From Octopus vulgaris (taxonomy: Eukaryota), in the NCBI GenBank assembly GCA_951406725.2, contig CATOCA020000001.1, positions 3,100,001 to 3,164,000 on the forward strand: DNA of 64,000 nucleotides, read 5' to 3'. The notes under the pieces are model-generated. The model was given only the letters and a program-made list of their open reading frames with translations. It was not told the origin of the DNA and searched no databases. The first letter of the stretch is position 1. Every line of letters begins with the position of its first letter. Position numbers and translations under genes: made by a program. Below are positions 9,070 through 64,000 of the stretch, in pieces.

Positions 9070-10303
9070 TATCGGATTGGTGCACAAGTAATGTCCTATT
9101 GAAAGATCTAAGGTAAAGATGAATAAGTCAACGACTTTGGAAGTATTTATTCCTTAACTCACTCTCAGTTGGTTTCAATGACCTTATTCCATCTTTCAAA
9201 AACCTCATAAATGCCTCGCTTTTAAAATTCTGTAGGTTTAGAACGAAAATATGAATCCAACTCATTTTCAATCTTTTCTCTGGTGGTTAAGTCCATCAAA
9301 ATAGTTCTGTAGTCCTTGGAACGAATGGTAATCAGAGGGAACAAGGTCAGGAGAATATGGAGGATGAGGCTGTATTTTCCAACCAAGTTCTTCGAAGAGA
9401 GTTTTCGTTAGTCGTGCTGTGTCATGATGGAAGATGACACCCCTTCTGTTAACCAAGGGAACTTGATTTTTGGCTCAGAACTGTTTTCAAACGACGAAGT
9501 TTGTCACAGGAAAGCTAAGCATTAATTGTTTGGTTGTTGACCAACAGTTCACAATGAATTACTCCTTTGATATCCCACCATACACTCAACATGATCTTCT
9601 TTGTAGGATGTCCTGCTCTCGGTTGTTGAACTGGCCATCCTCCTCGACTGATCCAAGAACGACAGCGTTTAACATTATGGTAAAGAATCCACTTCTCATT
9701 ACCTGTAACGAGCCTGTCTAAATATGTTGCTTGAAAGTATCGCGAAAGCAATGATTGGCCACAAGCAGCATGCTGTTGTTGATTCTCTGGAGACAGCTCC
9801 TGAGGGACCCATTTTCCAGGCACTGAAACCGGCCCAATGTGTTTTAGCTGGCGTACCCCAATTGTATGGGCCATGTTCAACTGTTCTGCAAGTTCCCTAG
9901 TGGTAACGGTAAAGTTCTCTGAAAAAAGAGCTTTCAACATTTTGGAATCAAGTTTTTTTGAATGACCCACTTTTGGCTCTTCTTTCAAAGGGAAACCACC
10001 ACTTTGGAAATCACCTCTTGCAACTTCTTTCATCCCCATAACTGCTCTGAGTAGATCTTGCTGACGCACTTGCGTTTAGACCTTTATAAATCTCGAAGAG
10101 CATACCATTTCCTATGTGACCTTTAGAAGGGACAAACATGGTAGTAAAGGTTTTTGAGAATTATGGCCAGAAGTTTGATAATCTTAAAGAAAATAGTACA
10201 AATAAGACACAGAGATATATTAAAACTATAAGAAATGGTTTAAAAATTGATAAATTCGCTCTGAAACATTTTTTCTAGAAATCTGACATTACTTTTGCAC
10301 CAA

Positions 10304-10306
<3 letters not shown>
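9070..10306 (-). mobile_element. Mariner (Tc1/mariner) element remnant with TIRs
   Basis: TIRs attggtgcacaagtaatgtc / gacattacttttgcaccaat; transposase motifs WVPQEL, VTGNEKW, MLSVWWD, HHDTAR, PYSPDLVPSDY; frameshifted. Confidence 0.9.
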
Positions 10307-10344
<38 letters not shown>

Positions 10345-11775
10345 CCTGACTGCGTCCTTGCCCACCTAGTGACTTCCCTCCCCTCTCACATCCATGACAC
10401 CAACCATGCACTTCATTTGTTCAACTCTTTCTCCTTCCCTCCTGGCCCCTCAAAATTTCTCTTCACTCTCGACATCCAGAATCTTTACACGGTAATCCTT
10501 CAACTCGAGGGGCTGCGGGCACTTCAACATTTCATTGACCTTCGACCTAACCCCCAACCCAACACTTCCACACCCATTCGTCTGGCCGAAATTGTTCTTT
10601 CACTCTGATTTTCGTTCGCTGGTGCATTTTACCAGTAGTTTTCGGGAGTGGCCATGGGAACGAGAATGGGTCCCAACGATGCGAACCTGTTCGTTGGCTA
10701 CGTTGAGTCCCAAATATTCTCCGGTTTCACTGGTCCCACTCCCGAACTATACGGTCGTTATATTGACGACTGTATTCGTGCGACCTCACTCTCCGGCGAA
10801 CATCTAGATTCCTTCCTCTCTTTTGTCAAATCTTTCCATCCAGTCCTCCACTTCGCCTGCACTATCTCAGACACCTCTGTCACCTTTCTTGACGTTTCGG
10901 TCAGCATCCATCACTCCACTCTCACCACCTCCATCCACTACAAACACACAGACTCACACTCATACCTCAAATTCACCTCCTCCCACCCTAAACACATTAA
11001 TCTTGCCATCCCCTATTCTCAATTCCTCCGTCTACGCAGGTTCTGTAGTGACGACCTTGACTTTGAGACTCAGTCTCAACTCATGGCTCGCCAGTTCATC
11101 CTACGTGCATATCGCCTCACCACTATCCACACCACCCTTGCCACTGCCCGTTCGATGGATCGTGCATCTGTTCTCTACCCCGCACCAGCGCCGCCGTCCG
11201 CCGTCTCCCATTTCCCATCACCGACCCACCACCACCCCATCTCTCCAACACAACATTCTCGGAGACTTCCAGCGATTCCAGTTCGACCCCTCCACTTCGC
11301 ACATCTTCCATAACCGACCCCTCCCCTTCTTCAAAAGAGCCCACAGCCTACAAGACCACTTGGTATACAGCTTCTTCGCGAACCCAACCTCCCAACATGG
11401 CTCGTTCCCTTGCTCCCGCCCACGCTGCCGCACTTGCCCTGACCTCCCCAACATCAGCCTCCTCCCCGCCACATCGACCCTATCGCATCACCGACTCCTT
11501 CACCTGCACCTCTACCAATGTCATCTACTGCATCTCCTACTCTCTCTGCCCTTCTCTATACATCGGGCAAACGGGACGCCGCTTGGCCGACCGTTTCGCG
11601 GAACACCTCCGAGACATTCGACTCGGCAATGACACACCGGTCTCTCGCCATTTCCGCTCTACCGGTCACTCTTTGCAACACATGTCTGTGCTTGGATTGT
11701 CCTTGCACAGGGGCCATCCGGACTCCCGTTTGCGCCGTGAACAGGGATTAATCTTCTCTCTTCACTCCCTGGTCT
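10345..11775 (+). mobile_element. Penelope-like element remnant (RT + GIY-YIG endonuclease)
   Basis: AMGTRMGP, RYIDD, FLDV, YKHTDSHSYL..SSHP, IPYSQFLRLRR; then NVIYCI..YIGQTGRRL..RF.EH (GIY-YIG); several stops and frameshifts. Confidence 0.9.
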
Positions 11776-12179
11776 CCCCTCCCCTCTCTCCCCCCTCACA
11801 AATACTTCCCATCCACCTGATCTTTCTTGCTCCGACTTCTACTTCTTCTCTTCACTCCTTCTCTCCCTTCTTCTCTTCACTCCTACCCACCTTCTCCCTA
11901 CCCCTTCATCGTCACCCGTCCCTCGTGACCCCACCGCACCCCTGCACAATCCCACCCCACCTTCCCAATCCATCCCACACCATCTCTCACACCCACTTCC
12001 ACATACCGCACCTCTACCGCCACCATCAGCCTAAACCACACCCCACCCTAGCTTTCCCCGCCTCTCCCACCTCCCAACACCATCACACCACACCACATAC
12101 CACTGCACTATACACCACCATACCACACGACACTACACCGCATCGCATCACACCACCACGCACACTACAGCACTGACCA

Positions 12180-22377: not shown

Positions 22378-23417
22378 ATGGAAAGATACTTGAAATCTGA
22401 CAGACTGAATACAAACTGAAATTCTATAAATGCTGATAAAGTTTTTAATCACTGGTTTAGAACTTTCACCAACTTTATAGACTCACTACCAGGGCAGGAA
22501 GGTAGGGTTATCGATAAAGGCAATCTTTTGATTAATTATGTGGAACCGAACGTATACGAATTCATCAGAGAAACTAAGAACTACGAAGAAGCTGTGAATA
22601 CACTAAAGATTGTGTACATTAAACCAAAGAACATCGTAATGGCACGCCATCTTTTAGCCACAAGGAAACAGAAACTAGGGGAATCTCTAGACCAGTTCTT
22701 AAATGAACTCAAAATATTAGCGAAAGTCTGTGACTTTGTTGCAGTGAGTGCTGAGCAGTACCGGTCTGAAATGATTCGAGATGCATTTATAAATGGTCTC
22801 ACTTCGAATCAAATACGACAAAGACTATTAGAAAACAAAAGTGCCGACCTCAGTACAGCTTATGATCAAGCACGTTCCCTAGATGTGGCGCAACATAGTT
22901 CCTGTGTATTTGTAAACGCTGAGGGTGCCAAATTCAGTCCAACTGCATCCATTGTAGCTAAGCCAATAGATTCCCCAAAGCAGGGAGGAGACCCCTGTCA
23001 ATGTTGGCTTTGTGGCTATTCCAGACATCCGCGGACTCACTGCTCTGCGTGGAAAGCAGTCTGTCACAAATGCCCAAAATAGGGCATTTTGGAAAACTAT
23101 GTAGGAGCACCGCAGCAACTGTAACACAGGATGATGGTGAAAATTATTTGCGATTGGCAGTATCAGCATCAGCAGGTTCACACTTCCGAGTAACCTCCAA
23201 GGTTATACTGAACAATAGCTATAAAGCCGAAGCATTAATTGATGGCGGTAGCACTGACAAGAGCTTCATTAGTGAGAAGCTAGAGAACACACTCGACATT
23301 ATCACGGTCAAATTGAAGAGCGTCATTGGTATGGCTTCTGCATCACTTTCTGCGGAATCCAAGGGATACTGCACGGTTTCACTAACCCACAATAATCAGA
23401 AATACTACCATGACTAG
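22378..23417 (+). mobile_element. Ty3/Gypsy LTR retrotransposon gag-protease remnant
   Basis: Gag (ARHLLATRKQ..ESLDQF, IRDAFINGL..IRQRLLE), tandem Zn knuckles CWLCGYSRHPRTHC and CHKCPK*GHFGKLC, aspartic protease ALIDGGS; internal stops. Confidence 0.85.
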
Positions 23418-31389: not shown

Positions 31390-31467
31390 ATGGAGGATAT
31401 CATACAGAAAATTGAGAATGATGACATTGAAGGGGTTAGAAATATAGTAAGAACGAATCCCACAATA
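31390..31467 (+). CDS. Ankyrin-repeat + RING E3 ligase-like gene (Mind bomb/MIB2-like C-terminal half), coding exon 1
   Basis: ATG at 31390 after a pyrimidine-rich acceptor (ttttattcaaaag|ac ATG). Encodes MEDIIQKIENDDIEGVRNIVRTNPTI. GTAAGT donor at 31468, phase 0, matching exon 2. Confidence 0.7.
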
Positions 31468-32024: not shown

Positions 32025-35000
32025 CAGAAAAAAGCCTGAGAGCGAGAAAGGAAGGAGAGAGAGAGAATGAAACGAGAGGAAGAAAGTGAGAAATGAAAGA
32101 GTGATAGAAAGGAATGAGAGAGAGAAAAAGAAATGAGAGGCAGAAGGAGAGAAATGAAAGAGTGAGAGAGAGAAAGAAGGATAAAAAGAAGGGAGAGAGA
32201 AGGAGAAAAAAGCTTTGAGCGCAAGAAAGGAAAGAGAGAGAGAAAAGGGAATGAGAGGAAGAAAGTGAGAAATGAAAGAGTGAGAGAGAGGAAGAATGAT
32301 AAAAAGTAAACGAGAGGGAGACAGAAGGAGAAAAAAGCCTGAGAATGAGAAAGGAAAGAGAGAGAGAAAGAAACGAGAGAAAAAAGAGAGAAATGAAAGA
32401 GTGAGAGAGAGGAAGAATGATAAAAGGAAAACGAGAGGGAGAAAGAAGGAGAAAAAAGCCTGAGAGCGAGAAAGGAAGGAGAGAGAGAAAGAAACGAGTG
32501 AAAAAAGAGAGAAATGAAAGAGTGAGAGAGAGGAAGAATGATAAAAGGAAAACGAGAGGGAGAAAGAAGGAGAAAAAAGCCTGAGAGCGAGAAAGGAAGG
32601 AGAGAGAGAAAGAAACGAGTGAAAAAAGAGAGAAATCAAAGAGTGAGAAAGAGGAGGAATGATAAAAGGAAAACGAGACGGAGAAAGAAGGAGAAAAAGG
32701 CCTGAGAGCGATAAAGGAAAGAGAGAGAGAAAGAAACCAGTGAAAAGAGAGAGAAATGAAAGACTGAGAGAGAGGAAGAATGATAAAAGGAAAACGGGAG
32801 GGAGAAAGAAGGAGAAAAAACACGAGAGCGAGAAAGGGAAGAGAGAGAAAAAGAAACGAGAGGAAGAAAGAGAGAAATGAAAGAGTGAGAGAGAGGAAGA
32901 ATGATAAAAAGAAAACGAGAGGGAGAAAGAAGGAGAAAAAGCGAGAGAGCAAGAAAGGAAAGAGAGAGATAAAAAGGAATGAGAGGAAGAAAGAGAGAAA
33001 TGAAAGAGTGAGAGAGAGGAAGAATGATAAAAGGAAAACGAGAGGGAGAAAGAAGGAGAAAAAAGCGAGAGAGCGACAAAAGAAGGTGAGAGAGAAAAAG
33101 AAATTAGAGGAAGAAAGAGAGGAATGAAAGAGTGAGAGAGAGGAAGAAGGATAAAAGGAAAACGAGAGGGAGAAAGAAGGAGAAAAAAGCGAGAGTGCGA
33201 GAAAGGAAGGAGAGAAAAGTGAGGGCGCGAGTAAAGAAAGAGAGAGAAAGAGAAACAAGAGAAAGAAAGAGAGAAATGAAAGAGTGAAAGAGGGGAAGAA
33301 TGATAAAAAGAAAACGAGAGGGAGTAAGAAGGAGAAAAAAGCCTGAGAGCGAGAAAGGAAGAAGAGAGAGAATGAAACGAGAGGAAGAAAGTTAGAAATG
33401 AAAGAGTGAAAGAGAGGAATTAGGATAAAAAGAAAACGAGAGGGAGAAAGAAGGAGAAAAAAGCGAGAGAGCAAGAAAGGAATGTGAGAGAGAAAAACAA
33501 ATGAGAGGAAGAAGGAAAGAAATGGAAGAGTGAGAGAGAGAAAGAAGGATAAAAAGAAAACGAGAGTGAGAAAGAAGGAGAAAAAAGCTAGAGAGCAATA
33601 AAGGAAAGAGTGAGAGAAAAGGGAATGAGAGGAAGAAAGAGAGAAATGAAAGTGTGAGAGAGAGGAAGAATGATAAAAGGAAAACGAGAGGGAGAAAGAA
33701 AGAGAAAAATGCGAGAGAGCGAAAAAAGAAGGAGAGAGAGAAAAAGAAATAAGTGGAAGAAAGAGAGGAATGAAAGAGTGAGAGAGAGGAAGAAGGATAA
33801 AAAGAAAACGAGAGGGTGAAAGAAGGAGAGAAAAATGAGAGACTGAGAAAAGTAAGAGAGAGAAAAAGAAACGAGGGAAAGAAAGAGAGAAATGAAAGTG
33901 TGATAGAGAGGAAGAAGGATAAAAAGAAAACGAGAGGGAGAAAGAAAGAGAAAAAAGCGAGAGAGCGAGAAAAGAAAGAGAGAGAAAAAGAAACAAGAGA
34001 AAGAAAGAGAGAAATGAAAGACTGAGAGAGAGGAAGAAGGATAAATGAAAACGCGAGTGAGAAAGAAGGATAAAAAACCCTGAGAGAGAGAAAGGGAAGA
34101 GAGAGAGAATGAAACGAGTGAAAAAAGAGAGAAATCAAAGAGTGAAAGAGAGGAAGAATGATAAAAAGAAAACGAGAGGGAGTAAGAAGGAGAAAAAAGC
34201 CTGAGAGCGAGAAAGGAAAGAGAGAGATAATGAAACGAGAGGAAGAAAGTGAGAAATGAAAGAGTGAAAGAGAGGAATAAGGATAAAAAGGAAACGAGAG
34301 GGAGAAAGAAGGGGAAAAAAGCGAGAGAGCAAGAAAGGAATGAGAGAGAGAAAAAGAAATGAGAGGAAGAAGGAGAGAAATGAAAGAGTGAGAGAGAGGA
34401 AGAATGATAAAAAGAAAACGAGTGGGAGAAAGAAGGAGAAAAAGCGAGAAATTGAGAAAAGAAGGAGAGAGAGAGAAAGAAACGAGAGAAAAAAAGAGAG
34501 AAATGAAAGATTGAGAGAGAGGAAGATTGATAAAATGAATACGAGAGGGAGAAATGAGAAAAAAGCGGGAGAGCGAAAAAAGAAGGAGAGAGAGAAAAAG
34601 AAATAAGAGGAAGAAAGAGAGAAATGAAAGGGTGAGAGTGAGGAAGAAGGATCAAAAGAAAACGAGAGGGAGAAAAAAGGAGAAAAAAGTGAGAGGGCGA
34701 GAAACGAAAGAGAGAGAGAAAAAATGAGAGGAAGAAAGAGAAGATAAAAAAGATTGAGTAAGAGAAAAAGACAATGAGGAAATGAGAGAGAAAGAGAGAA
34801 CAGAGAGCGAAAGAGAGGAAAGGAACAGATAGAGAGAGAGAGAGGAAAAGGAAATAGAGAGAGAAAGAGAGAAAAGGAAAAGATAAAGAGAGATAGGGAG
34901 AAGGAAAGCCAGAAAATAAAAAGAGAGAGAGATGAAGCAGAGTGGGAGAGAACGAGAATAGAAAAAGAGAAAGAAGGAGAGGAAGAGAGGAAGATGGAAG

Positions 35001-36516
35001 ATAAGAGAAGAAAAAGGTACTGAGAGAAATAAAGAGAGAAAATGGGAGAGAGAGAGAGAGAGAGGAAGAAAGATGAAAAACAAACACTGAAAGAGAGAGA
35101 AATGAGAAAGAGAGGGTTAAAAGAGACGTAAAAGGAATAAAGAGAATGAGAGAAAAGAAAGTGAGAAGGCAAGAGAGGAGAAAAAAGAAAAAAGTAAGTC
35201 CCTTAAAGGGAGAAAAGGAAAAGGGGGAAAGAAGAGAAAAAGGAAATGACAAAGAGACAGAAAGAAAGAGAGGGATAGGGAGGAAGAGAGAAAAGGAAAG
35301 TGGGAGAGCGAGAGAAAGAGAGAAGAGAAAAATTAGCAGAGAAAGGAGATAACAGAGAGAAAGAGGAAGAGAGGAAAGAAAGAGAGTGATAGAACGAAAG
35401 AGAAAAACGGAAGCAAGTAAGGGAGGGAGAAAGAAGAGAGAATAGAAAAAGAGAGAAAAGTAAAGCAGGAGAGAAAGGTAAAAGAGCGGGGTAAAAGGAG
35501 AGAAGCGAAAAAGAGAGGGGGAGAAAGAAGGAAGGAAAGGGGGGAAAAGAAAGTGAGAGATAAGAATAGGAGAGGAAGAGGAAGAAAAAAGAGACAGAGA
35601 GGGAAAGAGGGGAATATACGAAAGAAAAGAGAGTGGGAAATAGAGAGAGAGGTTAAAAGATAGAAAAGAGAGACAGACAGGGAAAGAGGGGAATATAGGA
35701 AAGAAATGAGAGTGGGAAATAGAGAGGGAGGAAGAAAGATAGAAGAGAGAGAGAGAGAGAGGAAGGAAAGGGAGAGAAAGAGAGAGCAAAAAGTAAGAGA
35801 CATGGAGAGAGAAAGATAGAAAATAAAATGTGAGAGAGTGAAAGAAGAAGAAAGGGAGAGGAAAGGGAGAGAGTGAGCAAAGGAAAAGAGAAAGGGCGTC
35901 AAAGAAAGAGACACAAGCAAAAGAGAAAAGGCAAAGAGAAGCAGAGAGAGAAAGAGAGAGATAGAGATAAAAGTAAAAGAGAAAGAGAGACGAAAATGAA
36001 AATGATTGGGTGAAAGAGAGAAAAGGAAAAGTGAAGGGGACAGAGAGAGAAAGAAAGAGAGAAAAGTAATAGAGAGAGAGATAAAGAAAGAGGAAGAAAA
36101 CGAGAGAAATAGAGAAAAGTGAAATAGAAAAAGAGAGAAAAGAATGGGGGAGAGAGAAATAGAGGGAAATGAGAGAGGGAGCAAGAAAGAGAGGGAAAAG
36201 AGAAAGAGAAAGAAAGTAAGAATAGAAAGAGAGAGAGAGAGGCGGAGAGAAAATGAGAGAAATTGAAAATAGAGATGAAGAAAGATAAGAGATAAAAGAA
36301 AAAGAGAAAGAGGAAGGAAATGAGAGAGAGAAAGAGAGGAACGGAAAAAGGGAAAAGAGAGAGAGAGTAAAAGAGACACGGAGAGAGAAAGAGAAAGAAA
36401 GATAGAAGAGAAAGGGGGAAAGAGAGAGAAAGTGAGAAAAGAAATAGAAGGAAAGAAATGAAAGAGGGAGATAGAGAAAGAAGGAGATAAAGAGGAAAGA
36501 AAACGAGAAAGAGAGT

Positions 36517-36547
<31 letters not shown>

Positions 36548-36552
36548 AGAGA
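32025..36552. repeat. 4.5-kb polypurine (GA-rich) tract; first ~2.7 kb is a ~121-bp minisatellite
   Basis: aaaaaagcctgagagcgagaaagg..aaatgaaagagtgagagagaggaagaatgataaaa recurs about every 121 bp (32335, 32456, 32577, 32697...). Confidence 0.95.
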
Positions 36553-36598: not shown

Positions 36599-36759
36599 AT
36601 TCACAAACGTTTTGGTAGATTTGGAAAAGCTCCTTTAATGTTGGCCTGTGAAGTGGGCGCCGATAGAAGAATAATCGAAATATTAATAGAAGCTGGAGGA
36701 GATGTGGGAGCAAAAGACTCCTTCTTTGGTCAGACAGCTTTACATTGGGCTGTGTATTG
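36599..36759 (+). CDS. ANK-RING gene exon 2 (ankyrin repeats)
   Basis: cattacag acceptor; IHKRFGRFGKAPLMLACEVGADRRIIEILIEAGGDVGAKDSFFGQTALHWAVY(W); GTAAGT donor, phase 2. Confidence 0.9.
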
Positions 36760-37275: not shown

Positions 37276-37429
37276 GCGTCGTCTTGAAGCCGTGGAAGTC
37301 TTTCTATCTCGGGGAAGCGAGATAAACGGAAAGAGCGATGATGGCTGGACTCCTCTCCATTTGGCTGCAATGTCATATCCGGAATGGACAGATGGTGTGA
37401 AAGAATTAATGAAACACAGCGCTCTTGAG
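37276..37429 (+). CDS. ANK-RING gene exon 3
   Basis: actctcag acceptor; TG+G=Trp joins exon 2; RRLEAVEVFLSRGSEINGKSDDGWTPLHLAAMSYPEWTDGVKELMKHSALE; GTTAGT donor, phase 0. Confidence 0.9.
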
Positions 37430-42438: not shown

Positions 42439-42593
42439 ATCAATGCACGGTCTAATGATGGTCAAACACCGCTGCACTTGGCCTGTTCGCAGGGACACTT
42501 GCCCACTGTCAACATTTTGTTGGGTCACAATGGCATCGATGCCAATGTGGTGAACAACGATGGAGACACACCACTGCATGTGGCAGTTCAGGA
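42439..42593 (+). CDS. ANK-RING gene exon 4
   Basis: ttttcag acceptor; INARSNDGQTPLHLACSQGHLPTVNILLGHNGIDANVVNNDGDTPLHVAVQ(E); GTAAGT donor, phase 2. Confidence 0.92.
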
Positions 42594-43576: not shown

Positions 43577-43613
43577 GCGAGATTATAAATTGGTGTCTCT
43601 ATTGCTGAACCAG
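43577..43613 (+). CDS. ANK-RING gene exon 5 (37-nt micro-exon)
   Basis: tactttcag acceptor; GA+G=Glu then RDYKLVSLLLNQ completes ankyrin helix 2; GTTAGT donor. Needed to reconcile phase 2 to phase 0. Confidence 0.85.
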
Positions 43614-47954: not shown

Positions 47955-48164
47955 GGTTCACTTCAGTTGGACATTAAGAACAAAATGGAAAGGACACCAT
48001 TGCTTGAAGCCGTTTCCCAGGGTCACCTCGGAATGACACACCTGTTAATAGCCCTGGGTGCAAATGTAAATGCTGTTGATGGTGAAGGTAACAGCTGTTT
48101 GCACCTAGCCATGGCAACAGAAAAGTTTAATTCCGAGGGTGCACCCTTGGATTTACTAAACGAA
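47955..48164 (+). CDS. ANK-RING gene exon 6
   Basis: ccacaaag acceptor (an in-frame alternative cttcag starts the exon at 47967); GSLQLDIKNKMERTPLLEAVSQGHLGMTHLLIALGANVNAVDGEGNSCLHLAMATEKFNSEGAPLDLLNE; GTAAGT donor, phase 0. Confidence 0.9.
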
Positions 48165-49795: not shown

Positions 49796-49971
49796 TGCTG
49801 CACTGCCCTTAACCTGAAAATGGAGGAAAGGCTCTCTGGTATAGTGGTTGCGAGATATCTCGCCAGCAAGGGAGCGGACCTTCACCATAAAAACAACAAA
49901 AATAACACACCATTGGACCTCATTAAGGACCCAAATTTGAGAAAAAAAAAAGAAACATGTTTACCACCACA
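49796..49971 (+). CDS. ANK-RING gene exon 7
   Basis: catttgtag acceptor; CCTALNLKMEERLSGIVVARYLASKGADLHHKNNKNNTPLDLIKDPNLRKKKETCLPP(Q), resembling the last MIB ankyrin repeat (xxFLAxxGADLxxxNxxGxTPLDL); GTAAGT donor, phase 2. Confidence 0.88.
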
Positions 49972-52711: not shown

Positions 52712-52854
52712 ATGTTTGCGCTGCAGAAATAAAGCGGCCACAACAAAAGTCCATCCATGTGGACACCTTGTAATATGTAAGGGATGTTCAAACGTTCCAC
52801 TTCAACAATGTCTGAAGTGTTTAAAACCTGTAATAACAGGCAGAGGTCGAGTTG
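52712..52854 (+). CDS. ANK-RING gene exon 8 (C3HC4 RING finger)
   Basis: gtccacag acceptor; CLRCRNKAATTKVHPCGHLVICKGCSNVPLQQCLKC = C-x2-C-x11-C-x-H-x3-C-x2-C-x7-C-x2-C; GTAAGA donor, phase 1. Confidence 0.9.
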
Positions 52855-53945
52855 GTAAGAATATTCTTTGCTGATCTGTCTGTTTGTCCTGCTTGTCCCA
52901 TTGCCCTTATTGTGTAGAATAATATACTTCATGTTGTTATGTAGACAGAGGTCTGCCATAATCTGGCAGATTTATGATAAAAGGTGTTCCTAGTGTCTGT
53001 TCTCTGTAATAGTATATCTCTCACACTACATCCACTAAACATTGACCTTATCCAAGTAGGAAACATGTCACACTTCAAGAGTGTTGTAGTCTGCAACATA
53101 AAGATAATGGACGATTCTGCAAGATAATTAGTGGGTAACTGAAGTATCAATAAATCTCCATCAACTCTATAATTAATTATCAGTTGTTAGAAGATAAGTA
53201 AATACAACAGTACTTACAAGGACATCAGTGTCATCTTTGGCAAAGTATTAAATTCAGTAGAATATTTTAAAGGAGTAAAATTATATGTCACTAGTTTGAG
53301 AGACTTTAACACACAATTCCATGTTGTTATGTTTGTAATTGGAGGATCTTAAGGCTAATAGAGACAGTTTTGTTTGTCAACCAACCAGATCATGAAACCT
53401 TCAAATATATCCTGAATAAGATGACATTCTGGTGAACTGTGAAGTTAAAATTAAAGATTATCAGCAACAATGTTTAACAAAGAGATTAGGTGTATATTTC
53501 TCCTTCTTGAAGTGGTTGTGACATGTATTTGTTGTTATATCTTTGATGAATAAATATGTTGACACTGGAATCAAACAGGTTGTTAGTGAAGATTAGAGTT
53601 TTGAGAATACATTTAGGGTTATAGATATAAGCAAGGAAACCAAAACCTACAGATAAACTGTTATTAGGTGATAATTAAGTGATATAATTACAGCATTGTT
53701 AGATTATGTAGGATATCTTAACAGAGAGAGGAAATTTACAAAGATCAACTAGAGTTCGTTTTGGAGCTAAATATTGGCTATTACATGGGTCCACTGTTGA
53801 AAGTATGAAAATATTGACCAAAACAATTATGATCGCTGGTTGGCCATTGATGGTATGAATGTTTCTCATTAATAAAATATAGATTATTAATAAATATAAA
53901 GGGATTGTGCTATAAATAAATATAAAACTTGGAGACATATTTCAG

Positions 53946-54025
53946 AGAGTCCAAAGTTTGAAGAGAAGGGAGTGCAGACTGTGGCAGAGACAGTTGATGA
54001 GTTTAAAATTAGAGATCTTAATTAA
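53946..54025 (+). CDS. ANK-RING gene putative terminal exon 9 (cassette 1)
   Basis: atatttcag acceptor, phase 1; ESPKFEEKGVQTVAETVDEFKIRDLN then TAA at 54023-54025. Total CDS is 1194 nt = 397 aa + stop. Confidence 0.6.
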
Positions 54026-55356
54026 TTTCTATAGATTTTACATTCACCTCAGCTATTTTGCTTATTAGAATGGTGGAGAACAAATCCCATCTCTAATTTC
54101 CATTTGAAAGTTTAGCTCTAAAGTAATTGTATTAAAAATATGAAATTTCATAAAGTCATGGTTAACGTGTTTGGTAAAAAGGATAAATTAAAAGCCACAA
54201 TAGAGTTAATATTGTCTTCTGGAAGAGGGAACTATAATTCTTTTTTTACGTGTAAACTCCTAAGTTAATAAGATAGTTGTTTGTTTTTCTACTAAGATTT
54301 TTCGTAAGTTTTCTGATAGGTTATTCTTGATGTTGTTATGTCGCCAGATGTCTGTCGTAATATGTTGTATTTTCTGAGGTTGTGTACCCTCAATGTCTCT
54401 GGCTAGAATACATTTTGTAGTTGCAAATTAGAAAATTATAATTAAATATTAACTCTGCATAAGAATATTCATCATGAACTTCATTTTATTAAATGTTAAA
54501 TTAAATATTGAACCGTGAACATCTGTTTATATTTAAACAAATTATTAGTGTTTATACAAAATATACAATCAGAAATTGAATATGACTTGAACACACAAAT
54601 CCCTGTTTGTAACTATATATAATATACACTTATTACATTGTTTGAACAACATTTACCATCCATATAGTCATTCTTTTTCTCACTCTTGTTAGATTTTAGA
54701 TGATATTAATGCTAAAAGAGGCACAGTTTTCTGAGTGTTTCACCCTTTGGTCTTGATTGCGTTCAAATTTTGTCATAGCATCATCATATACCCTTACCTT
54801 ACATTTTATATCTTGTTAGGGATCATGTTGGGGAAGTGTGTATGCAATTTGGCTTGTGGAGATATTTTTAGGGGACAGATAGTGTTGCGGAGTGGAGGGT
54901 ATACACATAAAGGACATGTCTTTATGGGCTCAGTTTCACTTAATTAGAGAGGAATGTTGATTAGTGAATTCTAGAGATGAGAGGACTGTGCCATGCCATA
55001 GATTTGGCACAGTTATAAGAAAAGAAAGACAAAGCTAAGAGAAAACTGTCATCAAGTGTTAATTAAATGAGATAATTGCAACATTGTTAGAATATTTAAT
55101 GTGTTTTTAGAGAGAGAGATAGATATAGAGAGAGAGGGTGGATTTAGAAATGTTAGTCTGTTTTATTGTGGACATATTGAGTTATTACATGGGACCACTG
55201 TAGAAAGTACAGAAATATTGACCAAAACCATAATGGTCAACAGTTGACCAGTAACGACAGAAATTGAATGTCTCACAATAACAAGATAGAGTTTAATAAA
55301 AATAAAGATGAAGAAATTTTATTTTTAAATGCAAAACTTGTAAATGTTTATTTCAG

Positions 55357-55457
55357 CGTCTCCAAAGTTTGCAGACAAGGGAGTGCAAATAGATTTACAA
55401 TTATTAGAGCCTATATCCGAGCAAAGTGTTGAGTATAAAATAAGAGTTCCCAATTGA
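55357..55457 (+). CDS. Duplicated alternative exon cassette 2 (paralog of exon 9)
   Basis: ttatttcag acceptor, phase 1; ASPKFADKGVQIDLQLLEPISEQSVEYKIRVPN-TGA, clearly homologous to exon 9. Confidence 0.45.
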
Positions 55458-58429
55458 TTTCTATAAGATTTAATTTACCTGGGTATATTGTGTTTGAAAG
55501 AATAACTGAAAATAGGATCCACTCCTATTTTCCAATTGAACGATTAGCTGTATAATAATTCTGTTAAAGATATCGATATTACTGAAAGTTTATGAAATAT
55601 CGCTCCAAGTTAGCACGGTCGGTAACAGTGTTGAAAATAGAGGACACAATAGAGTTCATTCTGTCATTTGATCACGAAATTAATAATGCTGTTTAACCCT
55701 TAACTTCCAAACTTTTATTCATACTTTTTGGCTTTGCCTGATGTCTCAGGAGTTACAATAATACATAGTATTTAGATTTTCTTCATATGTGAAATATTTT
55801 GGAAATTATGATAATTGTTTCGATAAGTCCCAAATGGGGATCGCTGAGAAAAAGCATATTTATCTTTTTCTATTCAATTGCAATAATAAAGATTTTAGTT
55901 TTTCTGAAACTAGAGTATCAAATGCGAATGTGTATGAAATATCAATGAATGATATAGAAGGGAAATGCAAGAAAATAAAAGAAAGAACCTTTCAAAACAG
56001 TCAATATTTTTGTAGTTCAAAAATTGCGATTTATGATATAAATGTCCTCTAGAATTAGCCAGAGTTAATAATGACAAAATTTAATTACTAAATATTGCTA
56101 AACACACCTCTACAAATGCAATGTAAGCAAGCAATTTACTTAAAATACAACGAACAACCGGCAGTGAAACTATTTTTATCAGATCCTCAAATGGGGCTCT
56201 TGGCAGGCCATGGGTTAAATGTAAGCAGGAGAATTATGATTTTGTTTGTTTTTCATTCTTACTGTTTATGGATAGGCAGTTATTGTTATTGTTGTTGTTG
56301 TTGTTTAGGCAGATGTCTCTCATAATCTCGCAGAGTTACAATGAAATGTGTTCCAACTGTGAACATACTTTTTTCACTGAAAGTAAATCTATCATTACAT
56401 GCACTAAACGTTGTCTTTGTCCAAGAAGAAGACTTTGGTTTCCTGCTGGGACAACCATTGTCTCACTCTCTTCGGGATAAATATTTGCTGCAAGATACAA
56501 TACAATAAATGACATCGTCCTCATCATTTATCATCTGATTTCTATAACCAGAGGTACCTGGTCATAGCCTCAGTGAAAAACACAGATCTACCCGTCAGAT
56601 ATTCCATTCTCTCATTTTCTTAATCATCACACAAGGAACTGCTAAAATGCAGCGTTTTGTTGTGTACGGCGGATTGTGGTAGCAGTCAGGGTAGAATATG
56701 ATATATCTCCACCCTGCAGTTTGTAATTGTACATCTGAACTCCTTCTAGTGTTAACGACTTTTGTAATGGTCAAGTTAAACATTGCCAGAAAATCACGGA
56801 TTTCTCCCTATAGTACTAAGCTCAACTGGGGTATATCAGTGTTTTTAGCTGGCGAGACGACTGGTGTAGCTATTTCTGTGTTTATCGACAATTCATGGGA
56901 CGGAAGTGTTTTGGAAATGGTGTTGTATGAACTGTGTGCAATATTTTAGTTAAATTAGGAAGATTTGAGTTGTTATATCACGAATTATGTCGGATGTCGC
57001 TGTTACAAAATATTGTCTCTTCAAATCTTTTAACAATGATTTAAAACTTTTATTTTTGCTGTTACTTTTTCTTAGATACATTAAATTTATCGTTCCATCC
57101 ACTAAGCATTGTCTTTATCGAAGTAATGACTTTGGTTTGCTGCTGAGAAACCATTGTCTCTTTCTCTTTCAAGATAAATACTAGCTGCATCTTACAATAC
57201 AATCGAATACATCCTCATCATTTATCGTCTGATGTTCTTTCTAAAATGTATTTGATGGGCGGTCTCTACCCAAGACACTTCCTATTCTGAGATACTATCC
57301 ACCTCCATTGGTTGAGGGACATATGTCTCTCAAAGATACCCGCTTTTCTACCGATTGACTCTCAGGTTCAAGATCTGAAGCTCATTTCTCAACATTTCCT
57401 TCCATTTTTCTTGAGGTTCTCTCCACATTTACAGATCGGTGCTCTTTATACAGCTGATCTTATTCATACATATCACATGGTCATACTGGCACAGTCGTCT
57501 GTCTTGCGTACTACATACATGTGATAACTCTCGACTTTTATCTCAAAACATGTCAGCATTTTATACCTGCACACTGACAGTGACCATCCAGTGGAGCATG
57601 CTGGTTCCATTTTGTTCAAGCCTTGACACGTCCTCTGTGTTCACAACATACATTTCACTACTATGTAGCATACACAGCTGTTCATACACAGGCTGCCCAT
57701 TGGTGATCAGAAACTCCCACAATAATAAAATATATATTATTAATATCTAGATTTAAAATATTTTATTATAAATTTTAAAAAAGCATTGAAATATTTATTT
57801 CAGGGTTTCTCAAGTCTCAGAACAAGCAGGTAAATAGGTTTACCTGAGCTATTTTGTTCGTAGGAATTATTTAGTATATGTTCTATTCCTAAATTTCAAT
57901 TGCACGTTTTAGCTGTAAAGTGATTATATTAAATGGATCGATATTACTGAAATTTCATAAATTGTCCACTCAAGTTAACATGGTTGGTAAAATGGATAAT
58001 TTAGAAGACACAATAGATTGAATATTCTCTTTTTGAAAGGGTATATATAATATGTTATTCTTTATCAGGTGAGTTAATGATTTTGTTTGTTTTACATTTT
58101 ACTACGTTTACTGACTGGTTATTGTTGTTGTTATTCAAGCAGGTGCCTCTCATTATCTGGTTCACTTACAAGGAAATACATTCCTAGTTTGAAACCTTGT
58201 CTTTGTTGAAGACTTGTAAATCTATCACTACATCCATTAAACATTGTCTTTGTCCAAATGGAAGACTTTCGTCTGTTGCACAGACAACCATTGCCTCTTT
58301 CCCATTCATAAATATAAATACTGACTGTATGATGCAATGCAAGCCAATGCATTGAAAGAAATGACACTCGTATTGAAGGAAGAAAGGATACTGAACATTT
58401 TAGATAGCCTAGTTCAATATTTAAAAGAT

Positions 58430-58905
58430 GAGAAGTCATCTTGTTTGTTGTTAACACAACGTTTAGTCTGATATACCCTCCAGCCTTAATCAGGTGCCTT
58501 AGGGAAATTTCGAACCTGGAGGTATTAATAACACGCACCAAGTATGGATTCAGGACATCCGTATACTACAAGCCGACCTTTACTAGACGATACTTCAACT
58601 TCATTTCCCACCATCCATACAGTGTAAAGAGAGGGATTGCTCAGTGCCTAAAACATCGACTACAAAATATAAGTAACGGTCGTGAAACCCACCACGAAGA
58701 AATGATCACGCTAATTAACAATCTATTAAGTAACAACTACCCCAAAATATACAATCCACTCTAATTATGAAGAAAAGAGAGGATGAAACCATTGAACTGT
58801 CCACAGTCTGTCTACCCTATGTGAAAGGCCTCTCCGAAAAGATACAAAAGATATGCGGCCCATATAACATCAGGACATTATTCAAGGGTAATACAACACT
58901 TCTTC
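58430..58905 (+). mobile_element. Penelope-like element remnant
   Basis: FRTSVYYKPTFT..YFNF.SHHP.SVKRGI..L..R and CLPYVKGLSEKI (PLE RT thumb and linker). Confidence 0.75.
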
Positions 58906-59403
58906 CTTCTGCATTTGGTGATGATGTCACTCACACCAGAATTCTCTCTGATCGCTTGATTACGGATATATATCACCGCACTGTAATGTGACATCCGACA
59001 TAATTTAACAATATTGCAATTACTTCACGTAATTATCTCTTTATAACACTGTTTCTCATTAGTTTAGTTTTCCTCTCTTATATCTGTACCTTAAACTCGC
59101 TCAAATGCAGAGAGATACGAAAGGAAAGGCATAGAGGAAGAATACTGTTATAAAGAGGTAATTAAATAATTTCAATCTTGTTAAATTATGCTGGATATCT
59201 GAATACAGAGAGGATAGATAGGAAATTTGCGCATATTTTGAAGGCTCAAAATATTGTGTTAAACAGTATGAGTTGCTCACCAAAGATATAGTGGTCACCC
59301 GTTTACCATTTAAGATATAAATGTCGAAGAAAATCAAAATATAGATTAGGAAATATAACCAAATCATAAAATAAAATGTAATAAATGAAAATATTCATTT
59401 CAG

Positions 59404-59454
59404 CTTGTGGAAGAGGTTTTGCCAAATGGACCCAACCCAGTTCAAAACAATATG
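59404..59454 (+). CDS. Exon-like cassette 4 (51 nt, intact AG / GTGAGT)
   Basis: attttcag acceptor and GTGAGT donor; length is a multiple of 3 and the frame is open; flanks homologous to the other cassettes. Confidence 0.4.
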
Positions 59455-60139
59455 GTGAGTTTAAATTTATATTACCTTATCGATTTCCATAAAGATTCTG
59501 TGATATTTCACTGATAGTAAATTTACCATGACTTTGTATGAGGTAAATTTGGTGTTGACAATTTTGGGGACATCTGACGTTTCTTTCCTCTACACCTGTG
59601 TAGAATTAGTTATTACTCACTTGGGATGAAATCTATTTCATTCAGGGGTCTTCAAATATTTTCTACATTAGATGACATTCTGGTGAACGTAGATGTGGGT
59701 AGTTAAAATCAAAGATTACCAGAAGCAATGTTTCACACAGAGAGTAGGTGCTTGTTGTCTAAAGTGAAGCGGTGTGAAATGTATTTGAAGATAGATATTT
59801 GATGATTAACCTTGTTGACATTGGAAGTGAGCAGAAAATTATAAGAATGTCTGATTAGTGAGTTCTACTGTAGATGTGAAAACGCCATGTCATAGATGCG
59901 TCACAAATACGCAGGTTGATGTGGGCAGTTAAAATCAAAGATTACCAGAAGCAATGTTTCACAGAGAGAGCAGGTACTTTCTGTCTAACGGTAAGTGGTG
60001 TGACCAGATTTTGTAGATAGATATATGGTTATCCACTTGCTTGACATTGGAGTTGAGCAGAAAACGAGAAGTTTGGTTCGTGAGGTTTACTACGGTAGAG
60101 GTGAAAACGTTATGTCATAGATGTGACAGAAATACCACC

Positions 60140-60620
60140 TTGACCATGGTCGACTGACTGAGTGTATTGACGACACCAGAGATCACAGTGCACCTCCACT
60201 TCTGTCTTCATCTTGACCTTCTCACCTACGTAGCATGTCGTATTTCGTCAAACACTCACTTTTGGATTCGCTCTCAGTGACCTCCTCTGCTCGCGTATAT
60301 AACTCTCAACAACTGTGCATCCCTAAATAATTTCAGTGAGCTGGCTACCTGTCCCATCTGAAATGTTGGCATAAGTTTTTAGTGATGATGTCTCTCACAC
60401 CTGATTTCTCTATGATCGCCTCACTCTTGATGTGCAAATTTAGCAACACTCCCAAACCTCGATTTTTCGATTGTGCTTTGGGCCATTATCAGACTCACAC
60501 CCTCCCTCTTCGTCGTGTACCAGCTTTCACACCTGTTGTAAATTGTAGGTAAATAACTGTCGTTGAAGAGGTTTATACGATTGGTCCAATCCAGCTTCGT
60601 TTTGAGATCAACTTTCATAT
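60140..60620 (-). mobile_element. RTE-like LINE 3' remnant
   Basis: Degenerate LFNDSYLP..CESW..TK and GR..RW-type fragments. Confidence 0.4.
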
Positions 60621-61069
60621 ATCAACGCAATGTATTGTGACATCCAACATAATTTAACAATATTGCAATTCCTTCACGTAATTATCTCTTTATAGCACTG
60701 TTTTTCAGTAGTTGAGTTATCCTCTCTTTATACCTGTGCCTTAAACTCCCTGAAAATCAGAGAAATACGGAAGGAAAGAGAAAACAAAAAGCAAAATATT
60801 GTTATAAAGAGACAATGAAATTAAATAATTACAATATTGTTTAATTATATTTGATGTCTGAATACAGAGAGTATAGATAGGAAATTAGTTAATATTTTGG
60901 TGGCCCTTTATATAGAGTTTTGTTATATTGAAAGCTTGCTGACCAAAAGCATAGTGGTCAGCCGTTGACCATTGAAAATAGAAATATGTCACAATAGTGA
61001 AATATAGATTATTAACAAAGATAAGCACATCATGCTATACAACGCAACTCTTGAAAATAGTCATTTCAG

Positions 61070-61156
61070 ATATTCTGACACGAAGTATATTTCAAAGAGC
61101 CAGTATCCGTCACCGTTTAAGATTACCTTCTGGAGTAGATGAATCAGAGGAAGATA
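61070..61156 (+). CDS. Exon-like cassette 5 (87 nt, intact AG / GTAAGT)
   Basis: catttcag acceptor, GTAAGT donor, phase 1-1; DILTRSIFQRASIRHRLRLPSGVDESEED. Confidence 0.45.
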
Positions 61157-62899
61157 GTAAGTATGAAATAATTTCAAGTTACCGATTTCTATACATTTCA
61201 CCTTCTCCCGAGCTTTTGTATGTTAGAACGACTGAGTACAGATTCTATTCCTTAATTAGATTCGAAAGTTTTGTTGTATAATAATTCTATTCAATATATC
61301 GATATTACAGAAATTTCACAAAATATCCAACGAGGTTAGCGTGGTTTGTAAAGTGAAAAATTGAAACGGGAATATAATTAGTATAGTTTTGAGAAAGAGA
61401 GAACTAAGCTAATTTGTTTAGGAATATAAATTTTGAGTTAATGACAGCCGTTTTTGTCACATTTTTTACAAAGTTTACTCGTAGGTTATTATTGTTATTG
61501 TTGTTATTTAAACGGATGTTTCTCATAATCTAGAAGAATTACAATGAAATGCGTTCCAAGTGTAAGCTCTCTGTTATGTTACACTGGTAGTAATTTTATT
61601 ATTACATCCACTACACATTGTCTTTTCCCGAATAGAAAACATTTCTTTGCTACTGTGATAATCGGTATCTGCCTTTCTTACTTCATGAAAGATACAGGTT
61701 GCACGATGCAAGTGAATCACAGGCAACAACCCCGACATTTATCGTCAGATTTCCAGGCTCCTATGGACTAGATGAGTTGTCACTGTCCAAGTCAGTTCTT
61801 CTTCAGAACGAAATTAGTTAATATTTTGGTGGCTCTTAATAAAGAGTTTTGTTATATTGAAAGTGTAAAGCGTGCTGACCAAAAGCATAGTGGTCAGCCG
61901 TTGACCATTAAAAATGAAGATATCTTACGGTAATGGAATATTTTTGATTAATAGATATAATCATATTATAGTGTAAAATGGAAAACTTGAAAATATATTT
62001 TTCCGACACATAGTCGCAAACAATACTGTCTCAAAACTTTCCTATGCTTGAAACAGAATCATTTGATCATGAGTATAAAATATCATTACCTTATCGATTA
62101 CTGTAAATTTTAACTTTACTGAATGACTGACAACATCTTCCAATCCACATTTTGCATTTGAAAAGTTTGCTGCATAATAATTCTATTAAATATATCGATA
62201 TTATTGTAATTTCACAAAATATCCGATGTGGTGAGCATGGTTTGTAAAATGGATAACTTCGAAGACAATAGATTTAATATTTTACTTTGGAAGAGAAAAC
62301 TAATATTTGTAGTTGTTTCGCGATAAACATTCGTGTTAATGACATTTCTCTTTGTTTTACATTTTATAATATGTTTGCTGATAGATTAATGTTGTTATCT
62401 TGGCTGATATTTCTATAAAGATACTTTGAAAAGTATTTCAAGTATAAGCAGTCTGTTTTATTTCACAGATATTTCATTACATACGCTAAACATTGCCCTT
62501 ATCCAACTTACTTCTGTGATAGTTGTTGTCTATATCTCTTACTTCAAAACAGATACTGGTTGAAAGATACTATACAATAATTGACAATCTCTTCATCCTT
62601 CATCGTCTGATTACCATGCTCCCACCTCTTGATCGGATAGCAGACACATCTCAGTTAACCATTCTAGGTTTTATATGAGAGTATAATTTCCTAAAACAAA
62701 CCATTTGATAAAGTGTCCTAAGTGCATTTTATTGTGGTACAAGCAAAAGAAACGCTGATGTCTTTCTAATAAAACCTCAAAGAAAGTCAGGAATTAAACT
62801 TTTAGCTGAGAGTTTGCAGCAAGAAGGGAGGAAAGAGCAAAAACTGCATTATATAAGCATTATATAATAGTAAGGGGTTGTGGTATAAAATTGAAGGGA

Positions 62900-63500: not shown

Positions 63501-64000
63501 CGGGTGGACTGATTACTTTGTCAAGAATTTGACTTAGAGCAAATAAATAATACAATCTGTTACTTGTGGAAGATCAGCAGAACAGAGTGAAGTTCAAAGT
63601 AGCTGGAGAAACTATGATTGATTGATTGATTGATTCTAGTTTCAGCTCATGAGCAGTGGCCATGCTGAGGCACCGCATACATGCATACATTCAGGGAAAA
63701 ACTTATAAAAGTTTCAGACAGTGTTGCGCTGCCTCTTTGTCCAATAATTGTAAGGGCATTAAGATGAAAACGAAAACATGGGAATGGGTTAAAAGAATGA
63801 GAGTATTCGAAACTTCTTGGCAAACGTAAGATTCAATGCTTCCAGTTTGATCTATATTTGCGTCATGCTTATATATGCTTAATTGTCAGTTATTGTGTAT
63901 CATTTCGGATATGTTTATGCAATAGTATGTAGATGACCAGTTAAATGTAGTTAATAAGGTTTTGTGCAAGTGTACAATGTTTCAGGATACCTGCTGTCGC

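Follow-up and report, generated by a model that had tools for sequence, protein, structure and literature searches.

What kind of protein is built from a row of short exons that differ from one another while the introns around them stay alike? This question is raised by a stretch of Octopus vulgaris DNA (GenBank assembly GCA_951406725.2, contig CATOCA020000001.1, positions 3,100,001 to 3,164,000), hereafter called the window and 64,000 nucleotides (nt) in full, in which an exon for a RING domain is followed by six exon-like segments, here termed cassettes. A first-pass annotation had proposed that the cassettes supply alternative C-terminal tails. That proposal is mostly wrong: the protein continues past the cassettes to a death domain or propeller that forms its end, and only cassette 1 has been modeled as terminal. 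The reading favored here, with moderate confidence, is that the array encodes a linker of phase-1 mini-exons behind an ankyrin-RING module, that the motif carried by most cassettes likely binds a dimer of LC8 (DYNLL), that splicing and copy number would set the valency, and that the RING would be switched on by dimerization.

A tandem array of cassettes in a repeated intron unit

The coordinates and lengths first assigned to the six segments proved right in every case; five of the six lengths can be divided by 3, and phase 1 is confirmed for the end of the RING exon (52712-52854). The cassettes were also said to sit in a repeated intronic unit with alignable flanks and mostly unalignable exons, and this is what is found. 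The 140 nt upstream of cassettes 1-6 align in all 15 pairs (z 4.4-19.3 versus shuffles), whereas one of the 15 exon pairs aligns (cassette 1 with 2, z 6.2; z is at most 2.3 for the other 14). The specific flank motifs that had been named were recovered by regular expression less completely, upstream of four of the six cassettes and downstream of five. A profile trained on the units detected none in positions 1-50,000 of the window. The features of the array within the window, all on the plus strand, are as follows.

53600..62700, plus strand: repeated intron unit carrying each cassette, about 65-77% identity between units
53946..53996, plus strand: cassette 1 (motif EKGVQT), 51 nt, donor AT
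55357..55428, plus strand: cassette 2 (motif DKGVQI), 72 nt, donor TT here and GT in 2/2 paralog copies
56541..57831, plus strand: duplicated block of 1.3 kb, by sequence comparison 95% identical to its source just past the window end
57804..57829, plus strand: cassette 3, 26 nt, frame-shifting, with a fortuitous GT; a truncated copy of cassette 7
59404..59454, plus strand: cassette 4, 51 nt, an intact phase-1 AG..GT exon that is hypervariable among copies and has a degenerate motif
61061..61156, plus strand: cassette 5, an intact phase-1 exon with a variable 5' part and a conserved acidic end
62006..62068, plus strand: cassette 6, 63 nt, acceptor CG, donor AT, interrupted by a stop in phase 1; a dead pseudo-exon

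Two of these six segments, cassettes 4 and 5, are intact and in frame, whereas cassettes 1, 2, 3 and 6 are broken. The acceptor of cassette 5 needs correction: in contigs assembled from sequencing runs that we guessed to be RNA (not one of the 24 runs is registered as such), it lies at 61061, 9 nt upstream of 61070, which gives an exon of 96 nt rather than 87. Cassette 3 equals the first 26 nt of cassette 7 and is cut where the 1.3-kb duplication ends; three more truncated cassettes of this kind occur in paralogs. The defects of cassette 6 are common to all six copies counted, its own included, and the contigs skip it.

The array was first taken to end at 62,300, but seven more AG..GT cassettes of 51-72 nt (one of 72 nt and six of 51 nt) follow over the next 29.5 kb, past the window (G000:C31:3,165,499 to 3,193,478). 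The locus therefore holds 13 cassettes, of which four are broken and cassettes 4, 5 and 7-13 are open; AG..GT exons of the same phase with a length divisible by 3 make up 9/13. An AG near 63,985 was considered as a further exon and rejected, because its phase-1 frame stops after 11 codons. Exon birth-and-death driven by tandem duplication, as the first-pass annotation had suggested, is supported because copy numbers differ among paralogs and dead copies exist. In addition, positions 56541-57077 share about 75% of their sequence with the intron that immediately precedes the propeller exon (G000:C31:3,196,138-3,196,683), so older rounds of duplication also took in that end of the locus.

A conserved LC8-type motif and its predicted partner

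The cassettes share a motif that the first-pass account did not include, nor did it include the link to the death domain or the broken splice sites. Codon 10 is a glutamine in 10 of 11 cassette classes; D/E-K/R-x-V/T comes before it and T-E/V/D after it. The residues of this 8-residue motif of the TQT type agree with the rules for LC8 binding in PMC6607443 (polar or Asp at -4, Lys or Arg at -3, Gln at 0 with a branched residue on either side at -1 and +1, Asp or Glu at +2), and the canonical TQT is found in 49 of 91 known LC8 motifs according to bioRxiv 10.1101/2023.09.15.557927. At this locus cassettes 1, 2 and 7 match a strict form of the pattern, cassettes 8-13 match a loose form, and cassettes 3-6 match neither. 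Across seven classes the strict pattern is present in 22/22, 11/11, 6/6, 4/5, 4/4, 3/3 and 2/3 copies; by chance it arose in 37 of 31,800 residue shuffles, and it is absent from 51,685 residues of the propeller family. Predicted proteins of O. bimaculoides hold the motif as well (three matches in P0117 and one in P0119).

Substitution patterns single out the same residues. In 11 classes, which were picked partly for having the motif and leave out cassettes 4, 5 and 6 and the TPTSVK and NLKL classes, the V/T-Q-T anchor has pN 0.17 versus pS 0.71, compared with pN 0.45 versus pS 0.47 outside the motif; the upstream flank distance in this comparison is 0.32. Judged by these rates, the anchor is under purifying selection while other codons drift. 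Filtered pairwise differences between exon and flank are 0.025 versus 0.084 for cassette 7 and 0.084 versus 0.082 for cassette 8, figures that are safer than minimum-change counts, in which rearranged flanks raise the flank totals too far for cassettes 7 and 8 and for the NRTF class. Cassettes of the VQT type are thus conserved as well as or better than their own flanks, and the earlier expectation that exons diverge faster than introns applies to cassettes 4 and 5 only.

In an AlphaFold2 model of the paralog P0040, residues 327-394 have pLDDT below 50 and separate the folded ankyrin and death domains, so that the motif linker is predicted to be disordered. The genome encodes an LC8 of 89 amino acids (aa) that is near-identical to DYNLL2 (E 1e-55). 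A complex model of two LC8 chains with two copies of P0030 residues 400-443 scored 0.66, compared with 0.09 for the best control, and passed the score mark, although peptides fall outside the calibration of the tool; in that calibration the mark is reached by 51/78 solved and 2/108 mismatched microbial pairs, and by 71/105 solved and 2/126 unrelated eukaryotic pairs. The modeled interface, P0030 409-421, places the DKCVQTE motif in both LC8 grooves, with Gln417 at LC8 residues 62, 63 and 36. Contacts agree between runs to at least 84%, and partner pLDDT is at least 49.

A mechanism can be proposed on this basis. Tandem-duplicated phase-1 mini-exons would build a disordered linker behind the ankyrin-RING module, and the conserved motif in the cassettes would dock an LC8 dimer, the binding being predicted. 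LC8 would then hold two chains together directly after the RING. The number of such clamps, and hence the strength of clamping, would depend on splicing and copy number, and an IAP-like RING ligase would be switched on by dimerization. IAP-type RINGs such as those of cIAP2 and XIAP need dimerization. We infer binding in cells, activation of the RING in this way, a sensor or immune role, and any function of cassettes 4 and 5 as bait.

Several points weigh against this interpretation. Among 31 more distant death-domain matches only 4 have the motif, several subfamilies have lysine at position 0, and six DNEVQT copies match the loose pattern only. Table 1 of PMC6607443 contains many TQT-containing peptides that do not bind, and hydrophobic residues at +2 are disfavored; window-locus cassettes 1 and 7 have valine there. 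The choice of classes for the selection test depended in part on the motif itself. LC8-peptide complexes have already been solved, so the score of 0.66 may reflect memorization by the prediction tool, and the modeled peptide comes from an O. sinensis paralog rather than from the window. The two motif cassettes inside the window have dead donors, and the live ones (7-13) are outside it. Among the splice joints described below, most junction letters match paralogs, the runs are guessed to be RNA, and the joint from the RING to cassette 2 has a short side of 30 letters. Finally, the propeller exon is broken at this locus, and the window-locus copy may be decaying.

Evidence for modular splicing

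Cassettes appear to be combined modularly by splicing in relatives, a conclusion supported by gene models and by contigs from the guessed RNA runs. The 12 RefSeq isoforms of a single O. sinensis gene include from zero to four cassettes each, in varying combinations. In the contigs, a GT..AG joint in run X3 (30 letters on the short side) connects the RING to cassette 2 and skips cassette 1; loose ends in X2 and X11 match the same joint, and the joint contigs carry paralog-type letters. Cassette 2 continues into a death-domain exon, variants of cassette 5 are spliced to the start of cassette 3 or 7, and paralog-type joints into cassette 4 are present. A loose end of 9 letters after cassette 5 equals the start of cassette 7 in 4/4 runs from three studies. 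Differences in depth between exons and introns were not used as evidence, as contig depth cannot rank the parts of a gene.

For the window locus itself, modular splicing stands less firmly than in relatives. Joints exist, but the runs are guessed RNA, the paralogs are 92-98% alike, and the letters are mostly those of paralogs. The most specific evidence concerns cassette 5. Joints into 61061 occur in runs X1, X2, X7 and X11, including a GT..AG joint of 44 letters from cassette 4 in X7, and the AG at 61059-61060 that they use is present in the window copy only, among the five of seven cassette-5 copies whose acceptor context was read. As the source of these joints, this points to the window locus or else to copies that the assembly lacks. 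The public model P0001 leads from the RING straight to the propeller, with all cassettes skipped and the stops spliced round, and is a prediction rather than transcript evidence.

Cassette 5 (61061-61156) is also seen joined end to start in X1, X2 and X11, with unidentified letters between the two sides. A back-splice would give this arrangement, and so would other haplotypes in which the cassette is repeated in tandem.

Hypervariable cassettes 4 and 5

Two cassettes without the motif behave differently. Exon and flank differences are 0.237 versus 0.070 among five copies of cassette 4, and 0.159 versus 0.048 among six copies of cassette 5. By minimum changes, cassette 4 has 29 in 51 positions versus 56 in 370 (p 5e-10) and cassette 5 has 39 in 81 versus 38 in 349 (p 8e-13). 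The excess is confined to exon bins, no copy contains a stop, the sole length change is of 6 nt, and dead cassettes of the same arrays have no excess variation. Nonsynonymous rates are 4-fold above those of the flanks (p 1.5e-10 for cassette 4 and 1.6e-7 for cassette 5). Synonymous rates are raised as well (0.32 and 0.30, versus flanks of 0.15 and 0.09; p 0.15 and 0.009), and omega within the exons is 2.0 for cassette 4 (p 0.17) and 1.2 for cassette 5 (p 0.45), neither significantly above 1. Diversifying or balancing selection on these two cassettes is likely but not proven from such comparisons.

The ankyrin-RING gene and its relatives

Upstream of the array, ankyrin repeats and a single RING are encoded by eight exons between 31390 and 52854, with AG/GT borders and frame kept throughout.

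31390..31467, plus strand: coding exon 1 (ankyrin N-cap, phase 0), found by tblastn with paralog N-termini (E 2e-5), its ATG and GT donor read directly
36599-36759, 37276-37429, 42439-42593, 43577-43613, 47955-48164 and 49796-49971, plus strand: six ankyrin-region exons with AG/GT bounds and phases that chain
52712..52854, plus strand: RING exon, C3HC4-type and IAP/MIB-like, entered in phase 2 and left in phase 1

The O. vulgaris model P0001 matches these eight exons at 100% and contains Pfam ankyrin matches. On the RING, Pfam zf-C3HC4_3 scores 23.7 bits, below the cut-off of 27, which is passed in three of seven other proteins scanned. The best Protein Data Bank (PDB) sequence match of the RING exon is the cIAP2 RING (E 6e-4), and matches to cIAP2 and XIAP span E 6e-4 to 0.02. 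The zinc ligands are present by inspection, and ligase activity is putative. A fold search returned ankyrin matches only, including the MIB1 ankyrin structure 8v0e. No second RING was found in the 51 kb downstream of this RING gene.

Intron 1 is filled by a purine-rich array of 4.5 kb (window 32038-36552) with higher-order repeats of about 121-124 nt, and similar sequence is translated as a false N-terminus in some public models. Positions 9518-12173 and 22420-23079 hold transposon remains by inspection, which we take to be part of a mariner-like transposase, a reverse transcriptase that ends in a GIY-YIG-like region, and a gag-like frame.

Downstream, cassette 13 is followed by a phase-1 acceptor at C31:3,196,682 that opens a large propeller-like exon (G000:C31:3,196,682-3,201,530, L050), which has 141 matches in the genome, most of them on C28. 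Here the exon has two stops, the first after 358 codons, and one frameshift, whereas a 98.5% identical copy has an open frame of 1,621 codons. The two also differ by 15 nt, in frame, in the length of an AGT trinucleotide tract near G000:C31:3,199,558. The propeller family is large, unannotated and multi-propeller, with single-exon open frames of up to about 1,970 codons. Pfam placed nothing over its cut-off on the propeller in six proteins, and an NHL-like label from Atlas features (score 0.93) is a lead. At the other propeller loci read, cassette-8-type exons lie upstream in 8/8 and ankyrin or RING exons occur within 50 kb in 3/8; two O. sinensis models splice a cassette-8-type exon to the propeller exon.

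The RING has 31 matches in the genome. Among 18 RING paralog regions read for 20 kb, 12 have an array of two to eight cassettes and six have none. Exon 1 of the death domain lies inside the same repeated unit and is reached in 10 of the 18 regions, with Pfam Death over its cut-off in P0005; at the window locus no death-domain exon was found within 51 kb downstream. Death-domain exon 1 has 27-38 of 72 letters in common with cassettes 2 and 7, versus about 18 in shuffles, along with the same flanks, phase and 72-nt length, and this likeness indicates that both derive from a single exon unit. In a tree built from the unit flanks, 5 of 21 inner branches are well supported, and no order is claimed for death-domain exon 1 and the motif exon. 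The window locus is a mosaic that resembles death-domain paralogs up to about 56,540 and propeller paralogs after it, and a similar join is found at C31:4.68-4.70 Mb.

Other arrangements are found in the family. At L036-L037 (G000:C31:11,335,551-11,355,550) two ankyrin-RING paralogs stand tail to tail with converging cassette arrays. The 1,283-aa protein P0137 combines membrane-helix-like segments, a pentapeptide repeat and the death domain of the ankyrin-RING family, which suggests an end module grafted onto a receptor. No literature on the octopus ankyrin-RING family or its linker was found, judging from titles and abstract openings.

Alternative explanations

The kinship with death-domain exon 1 allows a simpler account of the motif, in which the cassettes are decayed copies of that exon, serve only as a spacer of variable length, and keep the VQT letters as an inherited relic. 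The shared letters, flanks, phase and length fit this account, as do the many dead cassette copies and the lack of the glutamine in distant subfamilies. Yet the anchor codons are constrained and their neighbors are not, the constrained positions are those buried by LC8, and the motif occurs in none of 10 copies of death-domain exon 1; overall, we regard a relic spacer as distinctly unlikely. Cassettes 4 and 5 could likewise owe their variability to gene conversion that homogenized the introns around older exon variants, or to a mutation hotspot, a possibility that is unlikely on balance but carries some weight. It draws on the nonsignificant omega values, on the raised synonymous rates, and on the small samples of five and six copies. 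Against this, the excess is limited to exon bins, nonsynonymous rates exceed those of the flanks 4-fold, frames stay open with a single 6-nt length change, and dead cassettes in the same arrays have none of the excess; furthermore, holding old variants against conversion would itself require selection.

That each exon ends the protein after the RING, as an alternative C-terminal tail, seems very improbable for the array as a whole, and the best case for it is cassette 1. Its AT donor is also present in 11/11 paralog copies (12/12 with the window copy), so that cassette 1 may be skipped or, possibly, read through to a stop 9 codons on as a last exon; it ends four RefSeq models (P0017 and P0097-P0099) and its copies differ by 0.011, compared with 0.035 in the flanks (Fisher p 0.096, from minimum changes). 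Cassette 2 could also read through at the window locus. However, all four models lie on short contigs (the longest in the cluster is 16.7 kb) and may be truncated, and one contig joint leaves cassette 1 out. The other classes retain their GT donors, and models that continue to the death domain or propeller place them internally. It is also possible, although we lean against it, that the window copy is a decaying chimeric pseudogene whose array is debris of unequal crossing-over, with function residing in paralogs. Of the six cassettes in the window four are broken, stops and a frameshift interrupt the propeller exon where a nearly identical copy is open, and paralog likeness switches near 56,540. 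Decay is harder to reconcile with eight upstream exons that all keep AG/GT and frame, with the open cassettes 4, 5 and 7-13, and with joints that use the AG peculiar to the window copy among those read; moreover, a protein ending at the first stop, 358 codons into the last exon, could still contain one propeller. An LC8-binding linker of mini-exons remains the reading that we prefer.

Relation to known systems

Short LC8-type motifs strung along a disordered region are familiar from other proteins. ASCIZ/ATMIN has many such motifs, whose valency grades its activity (PMC5963919), and weak cooperative LC8 sites stiffen linker L2 of KANK1 (bioRxiv 10.1101/2025.07.16.665182). The octopus linker resembles both in its string of motifs. 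Unlike in these examples, each octopus motif is its own phase-1 exon, the number and order of motifs shift by splicing, duplication and splice-site loss, binding is predicted, and the host is an expanded ankyrin-RING family.

The order of ankyrin repeats followed by a zf-C3HC4_3 RING recalls Mind bomb (MIB1/MIB2), and public annotation uses the MIB name. Mind bomb proteins are defined by N-terminal MIB/HERC2-ZZ-MIB/HERC2 and MIB-repeat domains and by two or three C-terminal RINGs. In contrast, MIB/HERC2, ZZ and MIB-repeat domains are absent from all eight proteins scanned with Pfam, the gene starts at the ankyrin cap, and the octopus proteins have one RING followed by the cassette linker and a death domain or propeller. 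A Mind bomb identity was rejected for these missing N-terminal domains and extra RINGs. The RING is closer to those of the IAPs cIAP2 and XIAP, its best PDB sequence matches, but the octopus proteins lack BIR domains and their RING is internal rather than C-terminal.

Tandem exon duplication is known with symmetric cassette exons, and hypervariable linkers are known from the NLRP1 tripwire and the bait regions of alpha-2-macroglobulins. The octopus array is like the former in that exons of the same phase are multiplied and skipped, and like the latter in having a fast-changing disordered stretch within a multigene family. Its cassette inclusion is additive, whereas that of Dscam is mutually exclusive.

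Implications for the family

A more ambitious scheme can be drawn for the family, although we think it improbable in full. The duplicated death-domain exon would be a portable LC8 dial, with one motif per exon, in a large family of intracellular ankyrin-RING sensors that tune ligase dimerization through the number of LC8 sites spliced in. Recombination in the repeated unit would swap the death-domain and propeller ends of these proteins, and the propeller branch would add two hypervariable exons as pathogen-protease bait or as a variable recognition strip.

Multivalent LC8 clients are known, and in the examples cited above their valency is tuned by occupancy; here it would be tuned genetically, one motif per exon. 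The family, lineage-expanded and mislabeled MIB2-like by annotation, is a candidate family of cephalopod intracellular sensors. In its array one can test directly how a domain exon may give rise to a short linear motif, and how such a motif is multiplied and lost.

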